NCBI GenBank assembly: GCA_016287565.1
Contig: JAEFAM010000001.1
Span: 73,344-137,343, forward strand
Length of the DNA: 64,000 bases
From: Clostridia bacterium
GTDB lineage: Bacteria > Bacillota > Clostridia > UBA1212 > UBA1255
Reading direction: 5' to 3'
Position numbers and translations under genes: made by a program. The notes beneath the pieces were generated by a model. The model saw only the letters and a list, made by a program, of their open reading frames with translations. It made no database searches and was not told the origin of the DNA. Positions 9,838-50,580 of the stretch are shown here, one piece after another; the first letter of the stretch is position 1; each line of letters starts with the position of its first letter.

Positions 9838-10476
9838 ATGAAAAATTTTCTGAAGCATTTGCCGATAGTGCTGCTGGCGGTCTTCGAGATCGTGGCGGGC
9901 ATCATGCTGTTCATCGACGCGGACGGCTTTACCAAATTGATCATTTCCGTATTCGGCGGCGTGCTGATCGCCGTCGGCATCGTGAACCTGTTCCGGTACG
10001 TTAAAGGCCGGAAGAGCGGTGAATCCAACGCCCTGAGCCTTACTCTGGCTGTGATCGTCACCCTGGTGGGCATCGTGGCGCTGTTCTTCCCGGGACCCAT
10101 CTACACCGGGATCGCGGGCGCTTTCGGGGCTCTGATCTACGCCATCATGCTGATCATCTCCGGCGTGTTCAAGATCGGCCTGTTCGTGGACTACAGGCAC
10201 AACCAGATCCCCGTAAACTTTATGCATATGATCAGCGGCATCGTTGCCGTGGTACTGGGCGTGGTGATCATTTTGAGGCCTCTGGGCAATGACGCCAGGG
10301 CCACCTGGATCCTTACCGGCATCTTTCTGATCGTGATGTTCGTCCTCGACGTTGCCAGCCTGGTGATCAACGTGGTCAACCGCGGCAAGAAAAAAACCGC
10401 TGAGCGCGGCGATTCGAATTCCGGTGACAACGGCGCCGGTACTGCCGGAGCGGCCGAGGTCGTGGCGGAAGGCTGA
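9838..10476 (+). CDS. Membrane protein, HdeD/DUF308-like (repeated paired transmembrane helices)
   Basis: A 212-aa protein with six or more hydrophobic helices in a short-loop architecture. The assignment rests on composition and topology only. Confidence 0.4.
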   Translation: MKNFLKHLPIVLLAVFEIVAGIMLFIDADGFTKLIISVFGGVLIAVGIVNLFRYVKGRKSGESNALSLTLAVIVTLVGIVALFFPGPIYTGIAGAFGALIYAIMLIISGVFKIGLFVDYRHNQIPVNFMHMISGIVAVVLGVVIILRPLGNDARATWILTGIFLIVMFVLDVASLVINVVNRGKKKTAERGDSNSGDNGAGTAGAAEVVAEG

Positions 10477-10478
10477 AG

Positions 10479-10973
10479 TCAAGATTTTTTGAATATTTTC
10501 CTTTTTATTTTGCCCCCCAGCCGCCTGATCGCTGCGAAGGCCGCTCTTACGGGGTAAATGGCGCACCAGACGCGGGAGTACACCCGGTATCCCCGGTCCG
10601 TCACCGGCGTGAGTCTGCCCTCGCCGGCATTGTCCGCGCTGCTCTTTTTAGAAGAGGCTTTTTTGCCCCGGACGAAACCCGTGAGGACGCCGAAAATATT
10701 GTCCGACGGGACCGTTTCCAGGGCGTAGGTATTGTCGCCGCGGATCAGATAATCGTCGCCGGACCGCTTTATGACCCGGTGGAGAACGGTGGATCCGCCC
10801 CGCCGGTACAGCACTACGTCGTACTTTTCGGGGGGTTTCGCGGGTGGCTCGATGACTACCAGATCCCGGTCCTGGCGAAGCAGGGGGCGCATGCTGGAGC
10901 CGTGGGTCTTGTAGACCAGCTTTCCGTCACGCGTCAATCTTTCTTCAAAAACGGATGGTTCCCGGTCGTTCAC
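10479..10973 (-). CDS. S26-family signal-peptidase-like protein, ER/SipW type (Ser/His), with no N-terminal membrane anchor
   Basis: It has a GSSMRPLL box (the catalytic Ser). Its VLHRVIKRSGDD box carries His where P-type signal peptidases have Lys, and a GDNxxxSxD box follows. The N-terminus is not hydrophobic. A probable GTG start overlaps the PqqD stop as GTGA, whereas the ORF track starts the gene at 11012. Confidence 0.5.
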   Translation of the reverse strand: MNDREPSVFEERLTRDGKLVYKTHGSSMRPLLRQDRDLVVIEPPAKPPEKYDVVLYRRGGSTVLHRVIKRSGDDYLIRGDNTYALETVPSDNIFGVLTGFVRGKKASSKKSSADNAGEGRLTPVTDRGYRVYSRVWCAIYPVRAAFAAIRRLGGKIKRKIFKKS

Positions 10974-11230
10974 TCTTCCAGAGCTCCCACGCTGCGCAGC
11001 GTCGCAAGGCATTTTTTTACGTCCGCGGCAATGACTTCCCGGGGCGCGTCGTATTGTTCGCAGGTCGCGTCGATCAGTTCTTCTTCGCTTATTTCGTTTT
11101 TCAGTTGCCCGATCAGGAAGGCGGTGGTCTTGTTGCCGCGGATCATTCCGTTGAACGCGCCGTTGCCTACGGGCACCAGAAACACGGTGTCGTCGATGGT
11201 CTGAGTCAGAAAGTTGCTTTTCAGCTTCAT
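10970..11230 (-). CDS. PqqD-family protein (RiPP recognition element-like)
   Basis: An 86-aa protein with a PqqD-like sequence (TVFLVPVGNGAFNGMIRGNKTTAFLIGQL...LIDATCEQYDAPREVIAADVKKCLATLRSVGALEE). An AAAGG ribosome-binding site precedes the start. Confidence 0.8.
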   Translation of the reverse strand: MKLKSNFLTQTIDDTVFLVPVGNGAFNGMIRGNKTTAFLIGQLKNEISEEELIDATCEQYDAPREVIAADVKKCLATLRSVGALEE

Positions 11231-11232
11231 TT

Positions 11233-11349
11233 TTACCTTTTTACCTCGCTGGTGTTTTTATCGTTTGCGTCGATCACGTCGATCGCGTCGTTTTTTCCGG
11301 TTGCGCCGGTCCCAACGCCTGCGCCGGTCGTGTCGTTTGCTTCTGTCAA
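11233..11349 (-). CDS. Candidate 38-aa acidic peptide (L/M)TEANDTTGAGVGTGATGKNDAIDVIDANDKNTSEVKR, a putative substrate or precursor
   Basis: The reading frame lies between the kinase stop and the PqqD start. A TTG start overlaps the kinase stop as TTGA, and the peptide's stop sits 2 nt before the PqqD ATG. The longer 66-aa ORF in the track overlaps the kinase 3' end and is less likely. Confidence 0.25.
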   Translation of the reverse strand: MTEANDTTGAGVGTGATGKNDAIDVIDANDKNTSEVKR

Positions 11350-12194
11350 GTCGTCAGGGCGGCCTGCGTCTCCTCGTCTTTGCGGCTCATGCCTTCGAAA
11401 GAGACCCGCGCGGCGTCCGGCTCCATGTTGCATTTCAGGTCGTAGAAACGGAGAGAGCGGGTCATCGTTTTTACCATATCCAGGATCAGGCCCATGGAGG
11501 CGGTGTCGTCGGAGAGGTAGACCTGCTTCATTAGTTTCATGAACGCGTCGGGCGCGGAAACGGGGGACACCGAATTGACCTCGCTCCTGCTCAAAAACGC
11601 GACGGCGTCAAGGGGCGCGGACACGTTGGCGCCCAGGCGGTGCTTGCCGTTCCATGGCGTGCCGCAGACCGTGATCCGGACCGGACCGTCGTTGCCGTCA
11701 ACGTTGTTGCCGGTGCCGCGATCGCCTTCGCGCTTGCCGTCGCCGTTGCCCGGAGCGTCCTTGGGAAGCTCCTTTTCGAACCTCAGCAGCGGCTTGTCGT
11801 CGTCGATCATCGTCACCCTGTTGCCGTAAACCTCGCGCCACAGCCTGGCGTGTGTGCTTTTTCCCGTGCCCGAAGGCGCCGTGAAAATATATCCGCGGCC
11901 GTCCATCGCCAGCGACGAGCCGTGCATCAGCAGCACGCCGTGTTTCAGCAGTTTTTCTGCCAGAATGGCGTGGATGGCGCAATTTTCCACAAACGCACCG
12001 GGATAAGCGGCCCGGACAATTCCTTCCGCTTCGTCGGTGGCGCGGATCCTCTCGAGAGCGCGGACCATGTCCTCCTCCGACGGGTCAACCACGAACGCGG
12101 GTTCAAGGTCGGTTTGATAGCCGTCAAAAAACCGCTGGTTCGACCTATATCTGCTTACGATCTCCGCCGGTACTCCGGCCAGCAAAATCCTCAT
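11346..12194 (-). CDS. HPr kinase/phosphorylase-related kinase (HprK C-terminal-domain-like, P-loop)
   Basis: It carries HGSSLAMDGRGYIFTAPSGTGKSTHARLW, an HprK_C-like Walker A region. A GGAGGTG ribosome-binding site lies 5 nt upstream of the ATG at 12194. The ORF track begins the gene at a GTG at 12200. Confidence 0.7.
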   Translation of the reverse strand: MRILLAGVPAEIVSRYRSNQRFFDGYQTDLEPAFVVDPSEEDMVRALERIRATDEAEGIVRAAYPGAFVENCAIHAILAEKLLKHGVLLMHGSSLAMDGRGYIFTAPSGTGKSTHARLWREVYGNRVTMIDDDKPLLRFEKELPKDAPGNGDGKREGDRGTGNNVDGNDGPVRITVCGTPWNGKHRLGANVSAPLDAVAFLSRSEVNSVSPVSAPDAFMKLMKQVYLSDDTASMGLILDMVKTMTRSLRFYDLKCNMEPDAARVSFEGMSRKDEETQAALTT

Positions 12195-12230
12195 CCGCAC
12201 CTCCGCGAGGTCAATCGCCTTCGCCTGCTA

Positions 12231-12259
12231 ATTATATCCTCCGGGGCCGGCGAACGCAA
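12231..12259 (-). promoter_or_regulatory. Putative promoter of the kinase–peptide–PqqD–peptidase operon (TTGCGT – 17 nt – TATAAT). The -35 hexamer lies inside a REP copy.
   Basis: On the minus strand a TATAAT -10 lies about 37 nt upstream of the kinase ATG, and the -35-like hexamer is supplied by the REP core. Confidence 0.3.
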
Positions 12260-12348
12260 GTCTGTCCCCCGTTCGCGCGTTCGGCGCCGGACGCTTGAAA
12301 CGCGAACCTGTCCCCCGTTCGGCGTGTCCCCCGTTCGGCGTGGGGGGA
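12251..12348. repeat. REP-like repeats (inverse orientation, AACGCAAGTCTGTCCCCCGTTCG, 3 copies). Positions 12251-12324 form the first copy of a roughly 72-bp direct repeat.
   Basis: The sequence was read directly. The block is near-identical to 12861-12932. Confidence 0.8.
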
Positions 12349-12447
12349 AGCCCAGGTTGCCTGGCTCCTCGGGCACAGATGAATAAGGTAAGACGCGGAA
12401 CGCAACCAAATGTTGACGCTGCGCTGTCTTGAAACGCTTGATAGGAG

Positions 12448-12493
12448 AAAAACACCCGGAAAACGAGCGCTTTAGTAAAATTCTGGGTGTTTT
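12448..12493. other. Inverted repeat AAAAACACCC ... GGGTGTTTT (stem-loop 1)
   Basis: A 9-bp stem with a loop of about 27 nt. A second, similar copy lies at 12616-12658. Confidence 0.4.
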
Positions 12494-12615
12494 GAGGAAG
12501 GCTGCGCCGTCTCGAAACGCCACACAAACGACAATCTTACAATAATTGCTTTTTTACAGCACATAATTTGCATTTTGACAAATGTCTTGCTGCCAGGGGG
12601 TTGAAAATGAGCGAG

Positions 12616-12658
12616 AAACACCCAAAAATTGAGGTTTTGTTGTGAATTATGGGTGTTT
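12616..12658. other. Inverted repeat AAACACCCA ... TGGGTGTTT (stem-loop 2)
   Basis: It is paralogous to 12448-12493 and is followed by AAGGAAG. Confidence 0.4.
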
Positions 12659-12825
12659 TAAGGAAGCGAGAACTACCTCAACGCCCAAAACGAGCGAGAG
12701 ATATGCGCAAATTGCTTTTTCGAGATAAATTTTCTGCGTTTTAAAGAAAAGCGCCACCCCAAGGCTGTAAGAGGTACCGCCTAAGTCCAAAAAGCGCGGA
12801 ACGAGAACAAAGGGCAGGGACGAAA

Positions 12826-12935
12826 AACGAGAACCTGTCCCCCGTTCGGCGTGGAGAGAGAAACGCAAGTCTGTCCCCCGTTCGCGCGTTCGGTGCCGGA
12901 CGCTTGAAACGAGAACCTGTCCCCCGTTCGGCCGC
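12826..12935. repeat. REP-like repeats (inverse orientation, 3 copies). Positions 12861-12932 form the second copy of the roughly 72-bp direct repeat.
   Basis: The sequence was read directly. Confidence 0.8.
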
Positions 12936-13043
12936 ATCCGTGCCCCGGCGGTCCTTGCCTCCTTCTTTCTCGCCTTGCCCGTTGATTTCCGCTACAGGAA
13001 AAAGATATAATTGACGCGGGAAACAAAAAAGGGGTGACTCGCC

Positions 13044-14267
13044 ATGAACGGGAAAGACAGGCAGATCGTAAGGGAACTTGCCAAACGGTATATGGAATTG
13101 ACCTGCTCGGAAAGGCAGCGGAAAATGGTGAAGCGGATGAGGGACAACAACGATCTTGTCCCGGGAAGGCCGCCGGTGCTGATCGACGAGATCCCGTGGT
13201 ACCAGATGGATATCGACGGCGAACTGATGCTCCGCTGCGAAGACCCGCGGGTCCGGGGCGTGGAGGATCACTTCCGCAAGGCGCTTTTCTATTTCAAGCA
13301 TTTCCCCGGGATCGACAATCTGTACGAGCCGTTTCTAAGGGTGCAGCAGGCGTTGTCCGTGACAGAGAAGGGCATCGGCTTGCCGTCGTACAATATCAGG
13401 CGCACCGACGGACAGAACAATATCATATCGCGGGAGCTGGAGGATCAGTTGGAGGACGAATCCGTGCTGGAGAAGTTCAAGCTGCCGGAAATGACGCCCC
13501 ATCCGGAGATCGACGCGGATAACATAGAATTCCTGACCGACCTGCTGGGCGACGTGATGCCCCTCAGGTTCTTCGGCTATGGTCCCTACTATTTAAATGC
13601 CTGGGACTACATCGCATACGTCCGCGGCGTGGAAGCCATCTACATCGACCTCTACGACCGCCCGGAATACCTGCTGGCCATCGTGCAGAAGCTGGTAGAC
13701 TACGCCAACAAATATCTCGACTATATCGAAGCGAATTTGAAGCCCGACAAGGACGTGGCCTGGCTCCACTGCACGCCCGGCTACATTTCCGGCATGGAAG
13801 ACGGTTTGAAAGGAGTCTGGTTCCGGGACAACGCCCAGCCTCTGGGCAGCATCTCGCCGGCAATGTTCGGCGAATTCGCCATCGACCCGGTGATCGAGCT
13901 GTCGAAGCGGTTCAAATATACGTATTACGGCTGTTGCGAGCCCCTCGACGACAAGATCGAGCAGGTCAAGAAGATCCCGAACCTGCGAAAAGTTGGTTGT
14001 CCCCCCTGGGCAAGCGTGGAAGCCACCGCCGAACAGCTGGGGGGCAATTACGTTCTGTCCCGGAAGCCCAATCCGGCGAAAGTTGCCATCTCCACCGATC
14101 CCGAGGAGATCCGCCGGGAGACAGAGGAGACGGTCAAGGCGTGCCTGAAGCACGGCTGCCCCTACGAACTGGTGCTGAAGGACATCAGCACGGTGAACGG
14201 CTGGCCGGGCAACCTTATCGTCTGGGCCGAGACGGTCAGCGGCGTGCTGAACGGATATTATGATTGA
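13044..14267 (+). CDS. Uroporphyrinogen-decarboxylase (URO-D/MtaA)-family-like protein
   Basis: A 407-aa protein. Its length and scattered motifs resemble the URO-D-like proteins common in gut Clostridia. An AAAGGGGTG ribosome-binding site precedes the start. The function is uncertain. Confidence 0.4.
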   Translation: MNGKDRQIVRELAKRYMELTCSERQRKMVKRMRDNNDLVPGRPPVLIDEIPWYQMDIDGELMLRCEDPRVRGVEDHFRKALFYFKHFPGIDNLYEPFLRVQQALSVTEKGIGLPSYNIRRTDGQNNIISRELEDQLEDESVLEKFKLPEMTPHPEIDADNIEFLTDLLGDVMPLRFFGYGPYYLNAWDYIAYVRGVEAIYIDLYDRPEYLLAIVQKLVDYANKYLDYIEANLKPDKDVAWLHCTPGYISGMEDGLKGVWFRDNAQPLGSISPAMFGEFAIDPVIELSKRFKYTYYGCCEPLDDKIEQVKKIPNLRKVGCPPWASVEATAEQLGGNYVLSRKPNPAKVAISTDPEEIRRETEETVKACLKHGCPYELVLKDISTVNGWPGNLIVWAETVSGVLNGYYD

Positions 14268-30665: not shown

Positions 30666-30725
30666 GCGAACGCAAGTCTGTCCCCCGTTCGGCGAGTTGC
30701 GAACGCAAGTCTGTCCCCCGTTCGC
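30666..30725. repeat. REP-like repeats (2 copies, GCGAACGCAAGTCTGTCCCCCGTTCG)
   Basis: The sequence was read directly. Confidence 0.8.
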
Positions 30726-46357: not shown

Positions 46358-46510
46358 GTGCGAACGGGGGACAGACTTGGGTTTCGGGCGGTCGAATGGT
46401 CCGTCGAACGGGGGACAGACTTGGGTTTCGGGCGGTCGAATGGTCCGTCGAACGGGGGACAGACTTTCGTTCGCCCCCCGGTGGAAAGGGGACAGACTTG
46501 CGATCACCGT
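46358..46510. repeat. REP-like repeat cluster (4 copies, GAACGGGGGACAGACTTGGGTTTCG and variants)
   Basis: The sequence was read directly. Confidence 0.8.
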
Positions 46511-50404: not shown

Positions 50405-50433
50405 GAAGCGCCAGCAGGCGCAGACCGGCGCGA

Positions 50434-50580
50434 ACGCGGGACAGACTTGGTTTCGCGCCGACTGTGGACGGGGGACAGACTTTAGGTCCCCCGCCTTTTT
50501 TTGCCGGCGAACGAGGACAGCGAACGGGGGACAGACTTGTGTTTTTGCGGGATGCGAACGCGTGACAGACTTGTATCTCG
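50434..50580. repeat. REP-like repeat cluster (4 copies)
   Basis: The sequence was read directly. Confidence 0.8.

Follow-up and report, generated by a model that had tools for sequence, protein, structure and literature searches.

The closest described counterparts of the locus examined here are the linear polyphosphorylated peptide (LPP) clusters of Bacilli, published in May 2026 (Popov et al. 2026, Nat Commun 17:6633, PMC13381572). The cluster of Paenibacillus alginolyticus, lppA-K-B-S-D-N, encodes a precursor peptide (lppA) whose leader reads YxxPxVLxHQxIxFETxxS, an HprK-like kinase (lppK) that polyphosphorylates Ser3 of the core, a discrete recognition element (RRE) of ribosomally synthesised peptides with post-translational modifications (RiPPs; lppB), a SipW-like 'SpI' leader peptidase (lppS), an MsbA-like exporter (lppD) and a nucleotidyltransferase (NTP-transferase; lppN). 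Deletion of lppS abolishes leader removal, and cleavage by LppS in a cell-free system requires LppB. The LppS mutants S29A, H68A and D93A are inactive, and the enzyme cuts after T-1 at a site where F-3, E-2 and T-1 all matter. According to the same paper, such peptidases were previously undescribed in RiPP pathways; its published set comprises 199 proteins, mostly from Bacilli, and it mentions neither radical S-adenosylmethionine (SAM) enzymes nor the topology of the LppS-type protein. Here we describe a gene within a 64,000-nucleotide stretch of a Clostridia bacterium genome (contig JAEFAM010000001.1; hereafter the window, always in its full length of 64 kb), whose product is most probably a cytoplasmic Ser/His/acid peptidase of clan SF, a distant Clostridial relative of LppS that would serve as an RRE-partnered RiPP leader peptidase.

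The peptidase gene is the last of a three-gene minus-strand operon that encodes, in order, a kinase homologue, a PqqD protein and the peptidase (Table 1). Its GTG start (10973-10971) is preceded by GGGAG and runs into the TGA stop of the PqqD gene upstream, the overlap reading GTGA. The same start appears in an independent gene call from another assembly and in an identical 164-residue database protein (P0001), and the N-termini of family members begin at this position. An alternative in-frame ATG at 11012, which would add 13 residues (MPCDAAQRGSSGR), has no Shine-Dalgarno sequence. The protein carries a Ser box of the GxSMxP type (G25-S26-S27-M28-R-P30, with the S27 codon at 10893-10895), a box D reading L64-H65-R66-V-I (H65 codon at 10779-10781) and a G79-D80-N81 sequence (D80 codon at 10734-10736), followed six residues past D80 by a conserved acidic residue, E86 (10716-10718). 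The initial annotation, made from the DNA sequence alone, had pointed out the GSSM Ser box and the HRVI box with His in place of the bacterial catalytic Lys, and both are borne out by the homologues described below. It had also described a box E reading 'GDN...S.D', of which the GDN portion stands; the 'S.D' portion does not, as S90 and D91 are adjacent and variable in the family and the conserved acid is E86.

Conservation of these residues was evaluated by using alignments of 24, 53 and 80 diverse homologues, in all of which G25, M28, H65, R66, G79 and D80 are invariant (H65 in 53/53 and 80/80 sequences). Among the 53 sequences, the position of S27 is Ser in 52, N81 is retained in 49, and the E86 position is Glu in 52 and Asp in the remaining one. 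The peptidase motifs are more than chance matches. The family to which they belong is also much larger than the published set. A 90 % clustered database holds 361 close relatives of the window peptidase, a few of which are labelled 'S24/S26 family peptidase'. A profile search of 1.84 billion representatives returned 8,242 matches at E <= 1e-3, of which 2,856, as clusters at 50 % identity, reach E <= 1e-10. Members are distributed among metagenome-assembled genomes (MAGs) of rumen and gut Clostridia, Atopobiaceae, Anaerolineae and Planctomycetes.

Several comparisons point to an endoplasmic reticulum-type (S26B-like) Ser/His chemistry, as had been proposed from the motifs. When the profile of 80 members was compared with PDB sequences, it matched SpsB (1.9e-4), the Bacillus anthracis type I signal peptidase (SPase I; 2.8e-4), SEC11C (1.5e-3) and SEC11A (2.6e-3). 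H65 falls on the catalytic Lys of SpsB and of the B. anthracis enzyme ('yvKRviG'), whose GDN sequences lie far downstream, after domain II. The alignment with SEC11A/C is one contiguous stretch, 'G-SMEPAF...ivHRVlK...flTKGDNNavDD', in which Ser falls on Ser and His on His, and E86, the putative third catalytic residue, is aligned on the second Asp of the SEC11 'GDNNAVDD'. Box spacing gives the same indication, with only 14 residues between HRV and GDN in the family, compared with a GDN located about 55 residues further on in SpsB. Among the 80 members there are sub-threshold matches to the archaeal-type model TIGR02228 (68/80) and SipW (34/80), with a best value of 3.5e-12; other curated models matched are the SodX protease (53 members, weakly), the bacterial type (47) and, weakly, UmuD (10). 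The window protein alone matches TIGR02227 at E 3.6e-4. Features of the S26A class are missing, since His replaces Lys, no domain II separates boxes D and E, and there is no anchor. Likewise, the Ser-Lys dyad of S24 peptidases is not present, as an invariant His occupies the Lys position.

An AlphaFold2 (AF2) model of the peptidase (mean predicted local distance difference test score, pLDDT, 92.7; predicted template modelling score 0.85) indicates an N-terminal helix at residues 8-16, a beta core spanning residues 19-101 and two C-terminal helices within residues 127-160. Foldseek comparisons of this model returned LexA (3.9e-4, the top match), SpsB (root-mean-square deviation 2.0 A) and SipA, which corresponds to the LexA/signal-peptidase (clan SF) fold. 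A Lys/Ser-rich insert (GKKASSKKSSADNAGEGR; window 10611-10667, residues ~103-121) is common only to the window protein and its closest homologue (P0002). This insert, modelled with low confidence (pLDDT about 66-76), is missing from all other family members.

The initial annotation had stressed that the protein lacks a hydrophobic N-terminal anchor, and had conceded that a different start might supply one. The highest Kyte-Doolittle mean over 19 residues is 1.11, is located in the C-terminal helix and is the same with the GTG or the ATG start. The ATG at 11012 adds no hydrophobic segment, and an N-terminal hydrophobic stretch is found in only 1/270 related proteins. A soluble protein is therefore supported with either start. 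The C-terminal 45 residues form a conserved, amphipathic helical hairpin with 10-14 Lys or Arg residues, and among its conserved positions are Y129, Y132, W136, P141 and R143. The family resembles S26B enzymes (SEC11A/C, archaeal SPase I and SipW) in its GxSMxP Ser box, its 'HRV' His, an acid six residues after the GDN Asp, and short box spacing with no domain II. It differs from them in having no transmembrane anchor and a cytoplasmic catalytic domain, in a family-specific basic C-terminal helical hairpin, and in a window protein that falls under the curated-model thresholds. Its substrates are also inferred to be RiPP leaders that an RRE presents, and not Sec signal peptides.

The relationship to LppS is most evident from profiles. 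An hhalign comparison of the window family with LppS (98.3 %, E 2.1e-14, 102 columns) pairs S27 with S29 and H65 with H68, and both E86 and LppS D93 are located six residues after the Asp of GD(N/T). Both proteins have about 150 amino acids and are anchor-less and of the SipW/Sec11 type, and each begins with an N-terminal helix, continues with a beta core and ends in a basic, helical C-terminal tail. In both systems, genes for an HprK-like kinase and for a discrete RRE of the PqqD type directly precede the peptidase gene. A closer match from the LPP study is SCH01704.1 of an uncultured Ruminococcus, an uncharacterised, RRE-linked protein in cluster 9 of the sequence similarity network (SSN), to which the window peptidase is 27 % identical (E 5e-19). 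The RRE adjoining SCH01704.1 is 41 % identical to the window PqqD protein (E 1e-19). Judged from these alignments, the window family is a distant Clostridial branch homologous to LppS. The window protein would fall outside SSN cluster 1 of the paper because its E value of 1e-6 to LppS misses the edge threshold of 1e-23.

The two genes that precede the peptidase gene are consistent with this relationship. The PqqD protein, in addition to its Pfam match, is recognised by the NCBIfam model of the lasso PqqD chaperone (6e-5). The gene at 11346-12194 encodes an HprK-like kinase homologue with predicted kinase activity, an assignment based on its membership in the ScmC family and on the match of its model to HprK/P and PEPCK. 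The P-loop reads A106-x-S108-G-T-G-K112-S-T-H115, with the invariant residues intact. The matches to the NCBIfam ScmC and HprK-related models are weak, and PF27840 (ScmC) is among the precomputed annotations of its homologues. The AF2 model, made with database homologues, has a pLDDT of 89.8, and Foldseek matches it, with prob 1.0 and E values of 1e-5 to 1e-6, to HprK/P and PEPCK. Searches of PDB sequences with the kinase profile gave insignificant PEPCK P-loop matches only.

To place these genes in a broader context, we surveyed 80 genome loci by using the profile from the 24-sequence alignment as a guide. Most are from MAGs of rumen and gut Clostridia, with others from Atopobiaceae, Anaerolineae and Planctomycetes, and one is from an isolate, Sarcina sp. 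DSM 11001. A PqqD gene is located directly upstream of the peptidase gene in 41/77 loci. The full order that recurs is kinase, precursors, a radical-SAM/SPASM enzyme in some cases, PqqD, peptidase, ATP-binding cassette (ABC) exporter and NTP-transferase, which matches lppA-K-B-S-D-N. Exporter and NTP-transferase genes are both present in L040, L060, L063 and L091, and kinase-RRE-peptidase sets with no neighbouring precursor recur in many genomes, such as L016, L020, L021, L054, L081 and L086. Domain fusions link the peptidase to the same partners. It is joined to PqqD, in the manner of the fused lasso B protein, in P0201, P0232, P0149, P0173 and P0209; to the kinase in P0223 and P0259; to the PF14907 NTP-transferase, in either order, in P0145, P0175, P0244 and P0226; and to the N-terminus of the ABC exporter in P0233, as in peptidase-containing ABC transporters (PCATs). 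The frequency of upstream PqqD genes, the fusions and the LppS precedent agree with the earlier proposal that this is a dedicated processing protease working with PqqD and not a secretory signal peptidase.

Members that occur without PqqD have other surroundings. Some, from Atopobiaceae and other organisms, adjoin genes for STT3-type oligosaccharyltransferases or GT2 glycosyltransferases (L011/L029 5413-8389, L057 7932-10841 and L036 7042-8474), and others adjoin genes for pyruvate kinase, an aminotransferase, RnfC, TrkA or holB. A further arrangement (L008 2477-2617 and 14211-14360; also L009 and L010) includes Cys-free precursors (MEKYEKPEMEVIIFDEEEK...TEQHF), two proteins of about 990 amino acids with a Cyclophil_like2 domain and an 866-residue protein of unknown kind, together with the kinase, the PqqD-peptidase pair, the NTP-transferase and the ABC exporter. 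This arrangement is a different, unexplored variant.

Related loci also reveal candidate substrates. They carry one to three small peptides that share a leader, ME(K)YEKPx(M/L)E(V/I)(I/V)E(L/I)..D(V/I)I(V/L)(T/A)S, followed by a variable core that is often rich in Cys. The YxxPx(L/M) portion is the motif through which, in lasso peptides, the RRE is bound. The V/I-x-S ending of the leader would fit the preference of signal peptidases for a small residue at -1 and an aliphatic one at -3. The precursors of relatives are like that of the LPP cluster in having a YxxP motif and a small T or S at -1, but the leader of the Clostridial branch (MEKYEKPxMEVIEL..VIVTS) differs from YxxPxVLxHQxIxFETxxS, and many relatives add a radical-SAM/SPASM enzyme and Cys-rich cores, neither of them described in the LPP paper. 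Tandem small open reading frames (ORFs) of this kind, again one to three with the MEKYEKPxMEVIEL..VIVTS leader and Cys-rich cores, stand beside a radical-SAM/SPASM gene and the PqqD-peptidase pair in L013 (6140-6366), L015 (5752-6207), L033 (6088-6357) and L063 (5394-5833), as well as in L048, L049, L066, L075, L076, L090 and L091. The nearest models for this radical-SAM/SPASM enzyme are TIGR04463, PapB, CefB and Clo7bot, all matched far below cut-off. Apparently, these loci represent an uncurated radical-SAM RiPP family that uses a signal-peptidase-like leader peptidase and that lies outside NCBIfam and the LPP paper.

From homology with LppS, we infer the catalytic activity of the window peptidase as well as its RRE dependence, its substrate and its cleavage site. 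In the proposed mechanism, the translationally coupled upstream PqqD protein would bind the leader of a ribosomal precursor, through the motif YxxPx(L/M)E(V/I) seen in relatives, and would present the end of the leader to the peptidase. Ser27, activated by His65, which Glu86 would orient, would then attack the scissile bond, and the leader would be released in the cytoplasm. In fuller cassettes, cleavage may follow or be coupled to modification by the HprK-like kinase and precede export by an MsbA-like ABC pump. Fusions of the peptidase to the RRE, the kinase, the NTP-transferase and the exporter N-terminus support the proposed order of present, modify, cleave and export. Because the exporter gene directly follows the peptidase gene in many loci, leader removal is probably coupled to export.

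Other RiPP and maturation systems provide partial parallels. In lasso peptide biosynthesis, the split leader peptidase B1/B2 likewise relies on a discrete PqqD-type RRE that presents a YxxP leader to a separate cytoplasmic peptidase, HprK-like kinases and PF14907 NTP-transferases are frequent accessories, and fused RRE-peptidase forms exist in both systems. However, B2 is a Cys protease with a transglutaminase fold, whereas the window family has clan SF Ser/His chemistry, and the loci examined for the window family showed no macrolactam (Asn-synthetase-like) cyclase. The exporter fusion P0233 resembles PCATs, although the C39 domain of PCATs has a papain-like fold and not that of clan SF, the peptidase of the window family is usually a separate protein, and a need for an RRE is expected from its homology with LppS. 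The nickel superoxide dismutase maturation protease SodX (TIGR02754) is similarly a soluble S26-family enzyme that removes the N-terminal propeptide of one cytoplasmic substrate. SodX is a Ser/Lys enzyme. It differs further in having no RRE partner, and the window family has no sodN or nickel superoxide dismutase context. RumPc of the ruminococcin C pathway, termed a 'signal peptidase' in a figure legend, was rejected as a counterpart, as it is an unrelated M16 metallopeptidase. Literature searches for PqqD together with HPr kinase and nucleotidyltransferase or 'S24' yielded only lasso-peptide genome-mining papers and labels in supplementary figures, and those for PF14907, SynChlorMet, S26 leader peptidases or HPr kinase with radical SAM found nothing relevant.

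Several observations weigh against assigning the window protein to an LppS-like leader peptidase. Its best single-sequence Pfam match is to Peptidase_S24, at 22.4 bits just below the 23.3-bit cut-off, and the curated S26B models TIGR02228 and NF046067 do not match it at E <= 0.1. Identity to LppS in BLASTP is 23 % (E 1e-6), and the window PqqD protein has no BLAST similarity to LppB. The presumed third catalytic position is Glu and not Asp, and pairwise aligners set E86 on LppS E94 instead of D93, because LppS has one extra downstream residue. Equivalents of lppA, lppD and lppN, all present in the LppS cluster, are missing: neither an exporter nor a PF14907 NTP-transferase was found in the window, and no precursor with a YxxP leader was found in the window or in the nearest related locus, L005, by regular expression or with a hidden Markov model (HMM) of the leader. 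Within the window, the expression M..YxxPx(L/M)x(V/I) gave spurious matches only, and the best match of the leader HMM over all stop-to-stop frames had E = 50. When the small ORFs flanking 17 precursor-less cassettes were compared all against all by BLAST, only alternate-frame shadows of conserved genes emerged. Among well-flanked loci, about one third of peptidase copies (17/48) are partnerless and lie amid housekeeping or glycosylation genes. Finally, comparison with the orthologues in L005 gave ratios of nonsynonymous to synonymous substitution rates (dN/dS) of 0.21 (peptidase), 0.19 (PqqD) and 0.27 (kinase), which are rough because dS is ~1 and near saturation. With this reservation, ratios of about 0.2 show purifying selection on the kinase, PqqD and peptidase genes. 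With the NTP-transferase, the exporter and precursors all missing from the window, the trio most likely has its precursor encoded at another place in the genome.

What the substrates of the branch might be is a matter on which a different view is possible. The Clostridial/rumen branch could serve one or more undescribed RiPP classes and not simply LPP, an idea that we regard as plausible but hold tentatively. The radical-SAM maturase and Cys-rich precursors of relatives suggest a thioether-type peptide, possibly phosphorylated too, from which a signal-peptidase-like enzyme would remove the leader according to the -3/-1 small-residue rule. In that case, the window trio would work in trans on precursors of this sort encoded at other places, or its substrate would be of a new kind.

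The same missing genes could instead mean that the trio is a relic without function, left over from the decay of a fuller LPP-like cluster that has lost its precursor, exporter and NTP-transferase. The comparison with L005 is relevant in this regard. This nearest relative occupies the same chromosomal site (rpoC, DUF308 ... SIS) and its peptidase is 67 % identical, but its gene order is kinase, PqqD, peptidase, PF14907 NTP-transferase and a leucine-rich repeat (LRR) protein before DUF308, and the last two are not present in the window, where only 2 nt lie between the stop of the peptidase gene (ends 10479) and that of the convergent DUF308 gene (ends 10476; window 10474-10481). That arrangement and the failure to find a precursor in 64 kb favour a remnant. 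On the other hand, all three ORFs are intact and keep every conserved catalytic or P-loop residue, dN/dS is 0.19-0.27, and precursor-less trios recur in many genomes. In addition, precursors of RiPPs commonly lie at a distance from the genes that process them. Given the intact residues, the low dN/dS and this recurrence, we favour a working enzyme over a relic and consider the latter unlikely.

A working peptidase might still have its substrate close at hand, in the form of the 38-codon ORF (Table 1) whose product would be a short, atypical precursor without YxxP. By position only, this ORF is a candidate precursor or remnant: it overlaps the kinase stop, ends 3 nt before the PqqD start, is predicted by a gene caller and occupies the place held by precursors in relatives, and its 'IDVIDANDKNTS' segment looks by eye loosely like 'LEVIELNGEN..TS'. 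We nevertheless judge this very improbable. The product scores 0.0 bits against the leader HMM, a value matched by 188/2000 shuffles (9 %), the start is TTG, and only four residues would remain after the putative TS cleavage site. L005, the nearest orthologous locus, has no counterpart and a gap of 27 nt between the kinase and RRE genes, and an open frame of 115 nt is not unusual in DNA of 59 % GC.

It is scarcely credible that the protein is a secretory SipW-like signal peptidase acting on Sec signal peptides and kept at the membrane, in place of a transmembrane anchor, through its C-terminal helices, which are basic and amphipathic. The nearest curated families are signal peptidases, the conserved basic hairpin could bind membranes, and LppS is reported to be poorly soluble (PMC13381572). 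However, LppS is active in cell-free translation with the RRE alone (PMC13381572), and in the window family no transmembrane segment or signal peptide places the active site outside the cell. Moreover, in relatives the domain is joined to the N-terminus of an ABC exporter, which is cytoplasmic, and to PqqD, kinase and NTP-transferase domains, which are cytoplasmic too, and the linkage is to RiPP genes and not to secretion substrates. A self-cleaving S24-type (LexA/UmuD-like) regulatory domain, suggested by the best Pfam match, the top Foldseek match to LexA and the weak UmuD matches in 10/80 members, has a negligible probability given a general base that is His and not the S24-defining Lys, the lack of a DNA-binding domain and of an N-terminal cleavage-site region, and the RiPP biosynthesis context. 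The Pfam S24 model covers Sec11-type enzymes too.

Table 1. Features of the kinase-RRE-peptidase operon and its surroundings in the 64-kb window.
Feature	Position in window	Strand	Length	Basis or remark
LppS-like (SpI-type, S26B-like) cytoplasmic leader peptidase, probable	10479..10973	minus	164 aa	family, conservation, AF2, hhalign
Discrete PqqD-family RiPP recognition element (LppB-like)	10970..11230	minus	86 aa	Pfam PqqD 3.9e-10
TTG-start ORF (LTEANDTTGAGVGTGATGKNDAIDVIDANDKNTSEVKR), candidate precursor or remnant	11233..11349	minus	38 codons	fills kinase-RRE gap exactly; gene call in independent assembly
HprK/PEPCK-fold P-loop kinase homologue (Pfam ScmC family, LppK-like)	11346..12194	minus	282 aa	
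Terminator-like hairpin and T-run	10394..10415	minus		consensus scan; 65-85 nt past peptidase stop
Upstream intergenic region	12201..13043		843 nt	presumed promoter region of the kinase-RRE-peptidase operon

Noncoding sequences flanking the operon were also examined. The terminator-like hairpin sits within the 3' end of the convergent DUF308 gene and may be the terminator of the operon. This call is weak because seven such sites were found compared with 4.5 expected. In the upstream intergenic region, a consensus scan of the minus strand found no sigma-70-like site. The region is filled with copies of a dispersed, genome-wide repeat whose core is GAACGGGGGACAG, for which 25 matches with at most one mismatch were observed versus 1.5 expected. 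Sites are found at 12253-12335, 12825-12935, 23377, 30679-30722, 46363-46461, 50433-50533, 52185, 54509 and 58251, and also in L005 (4260-4440), where copies of either orientation lie upstream of the orthologous operon. The repeat forms 71-nt blocks that are 97 % identical upstream of the kinase gene, and three 44-nt tandem units are present at 46363-46461. A role as an operon-specific operator was rejected because the repeat is dispersed genome-wide, and it looks like a genome-wide element of the repetitive extragenic palindrome or miniature inverted-repeat transposable element (REP/MITE) kind. The same upstream region holds three copies of AATTnTGGGTGTTTTnAGGAAG (12479-12500, 12645-12666 and 12728-12749), two of which, paired with a site at 12616-12630, make up an inverted repeat of 15 nt. 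Other differences from L005 are that the related genome carries ~4.2 kb between its peptidase and DUF308 genes, comprising the NTP-transferase gene and that of a 746-residue LRR protein, and that the URO-D-like gene of the window (13044-14267) has no counterpart at that place.

The type of enzyme found here is no longer new, because it was first shown experimentally in 2026 with LppS (PMC13381572), and the window copy is a divergent, incomplete member of that published type. The window gene itself adds little new biology; its cassette, though intact, is incomplete, and no substrate is visible. The more novel material lies outside the window, in the size and spread of the family, in its domain fusions, and in its coupling to radical-SAM/SPASM enzymes and Cys-rich precursors in Clostridia. 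From raw sequence, the initial annotation had independently recognised the enzyme type, a signal-peptidase fold that works within the cell as a RiPP leader peptidase guided by an RRE. The pair formed by this peptidase and its RRE is a compact genome-mining marker for unexplored RiPP clusters, including those with radical-SAM enzymes.

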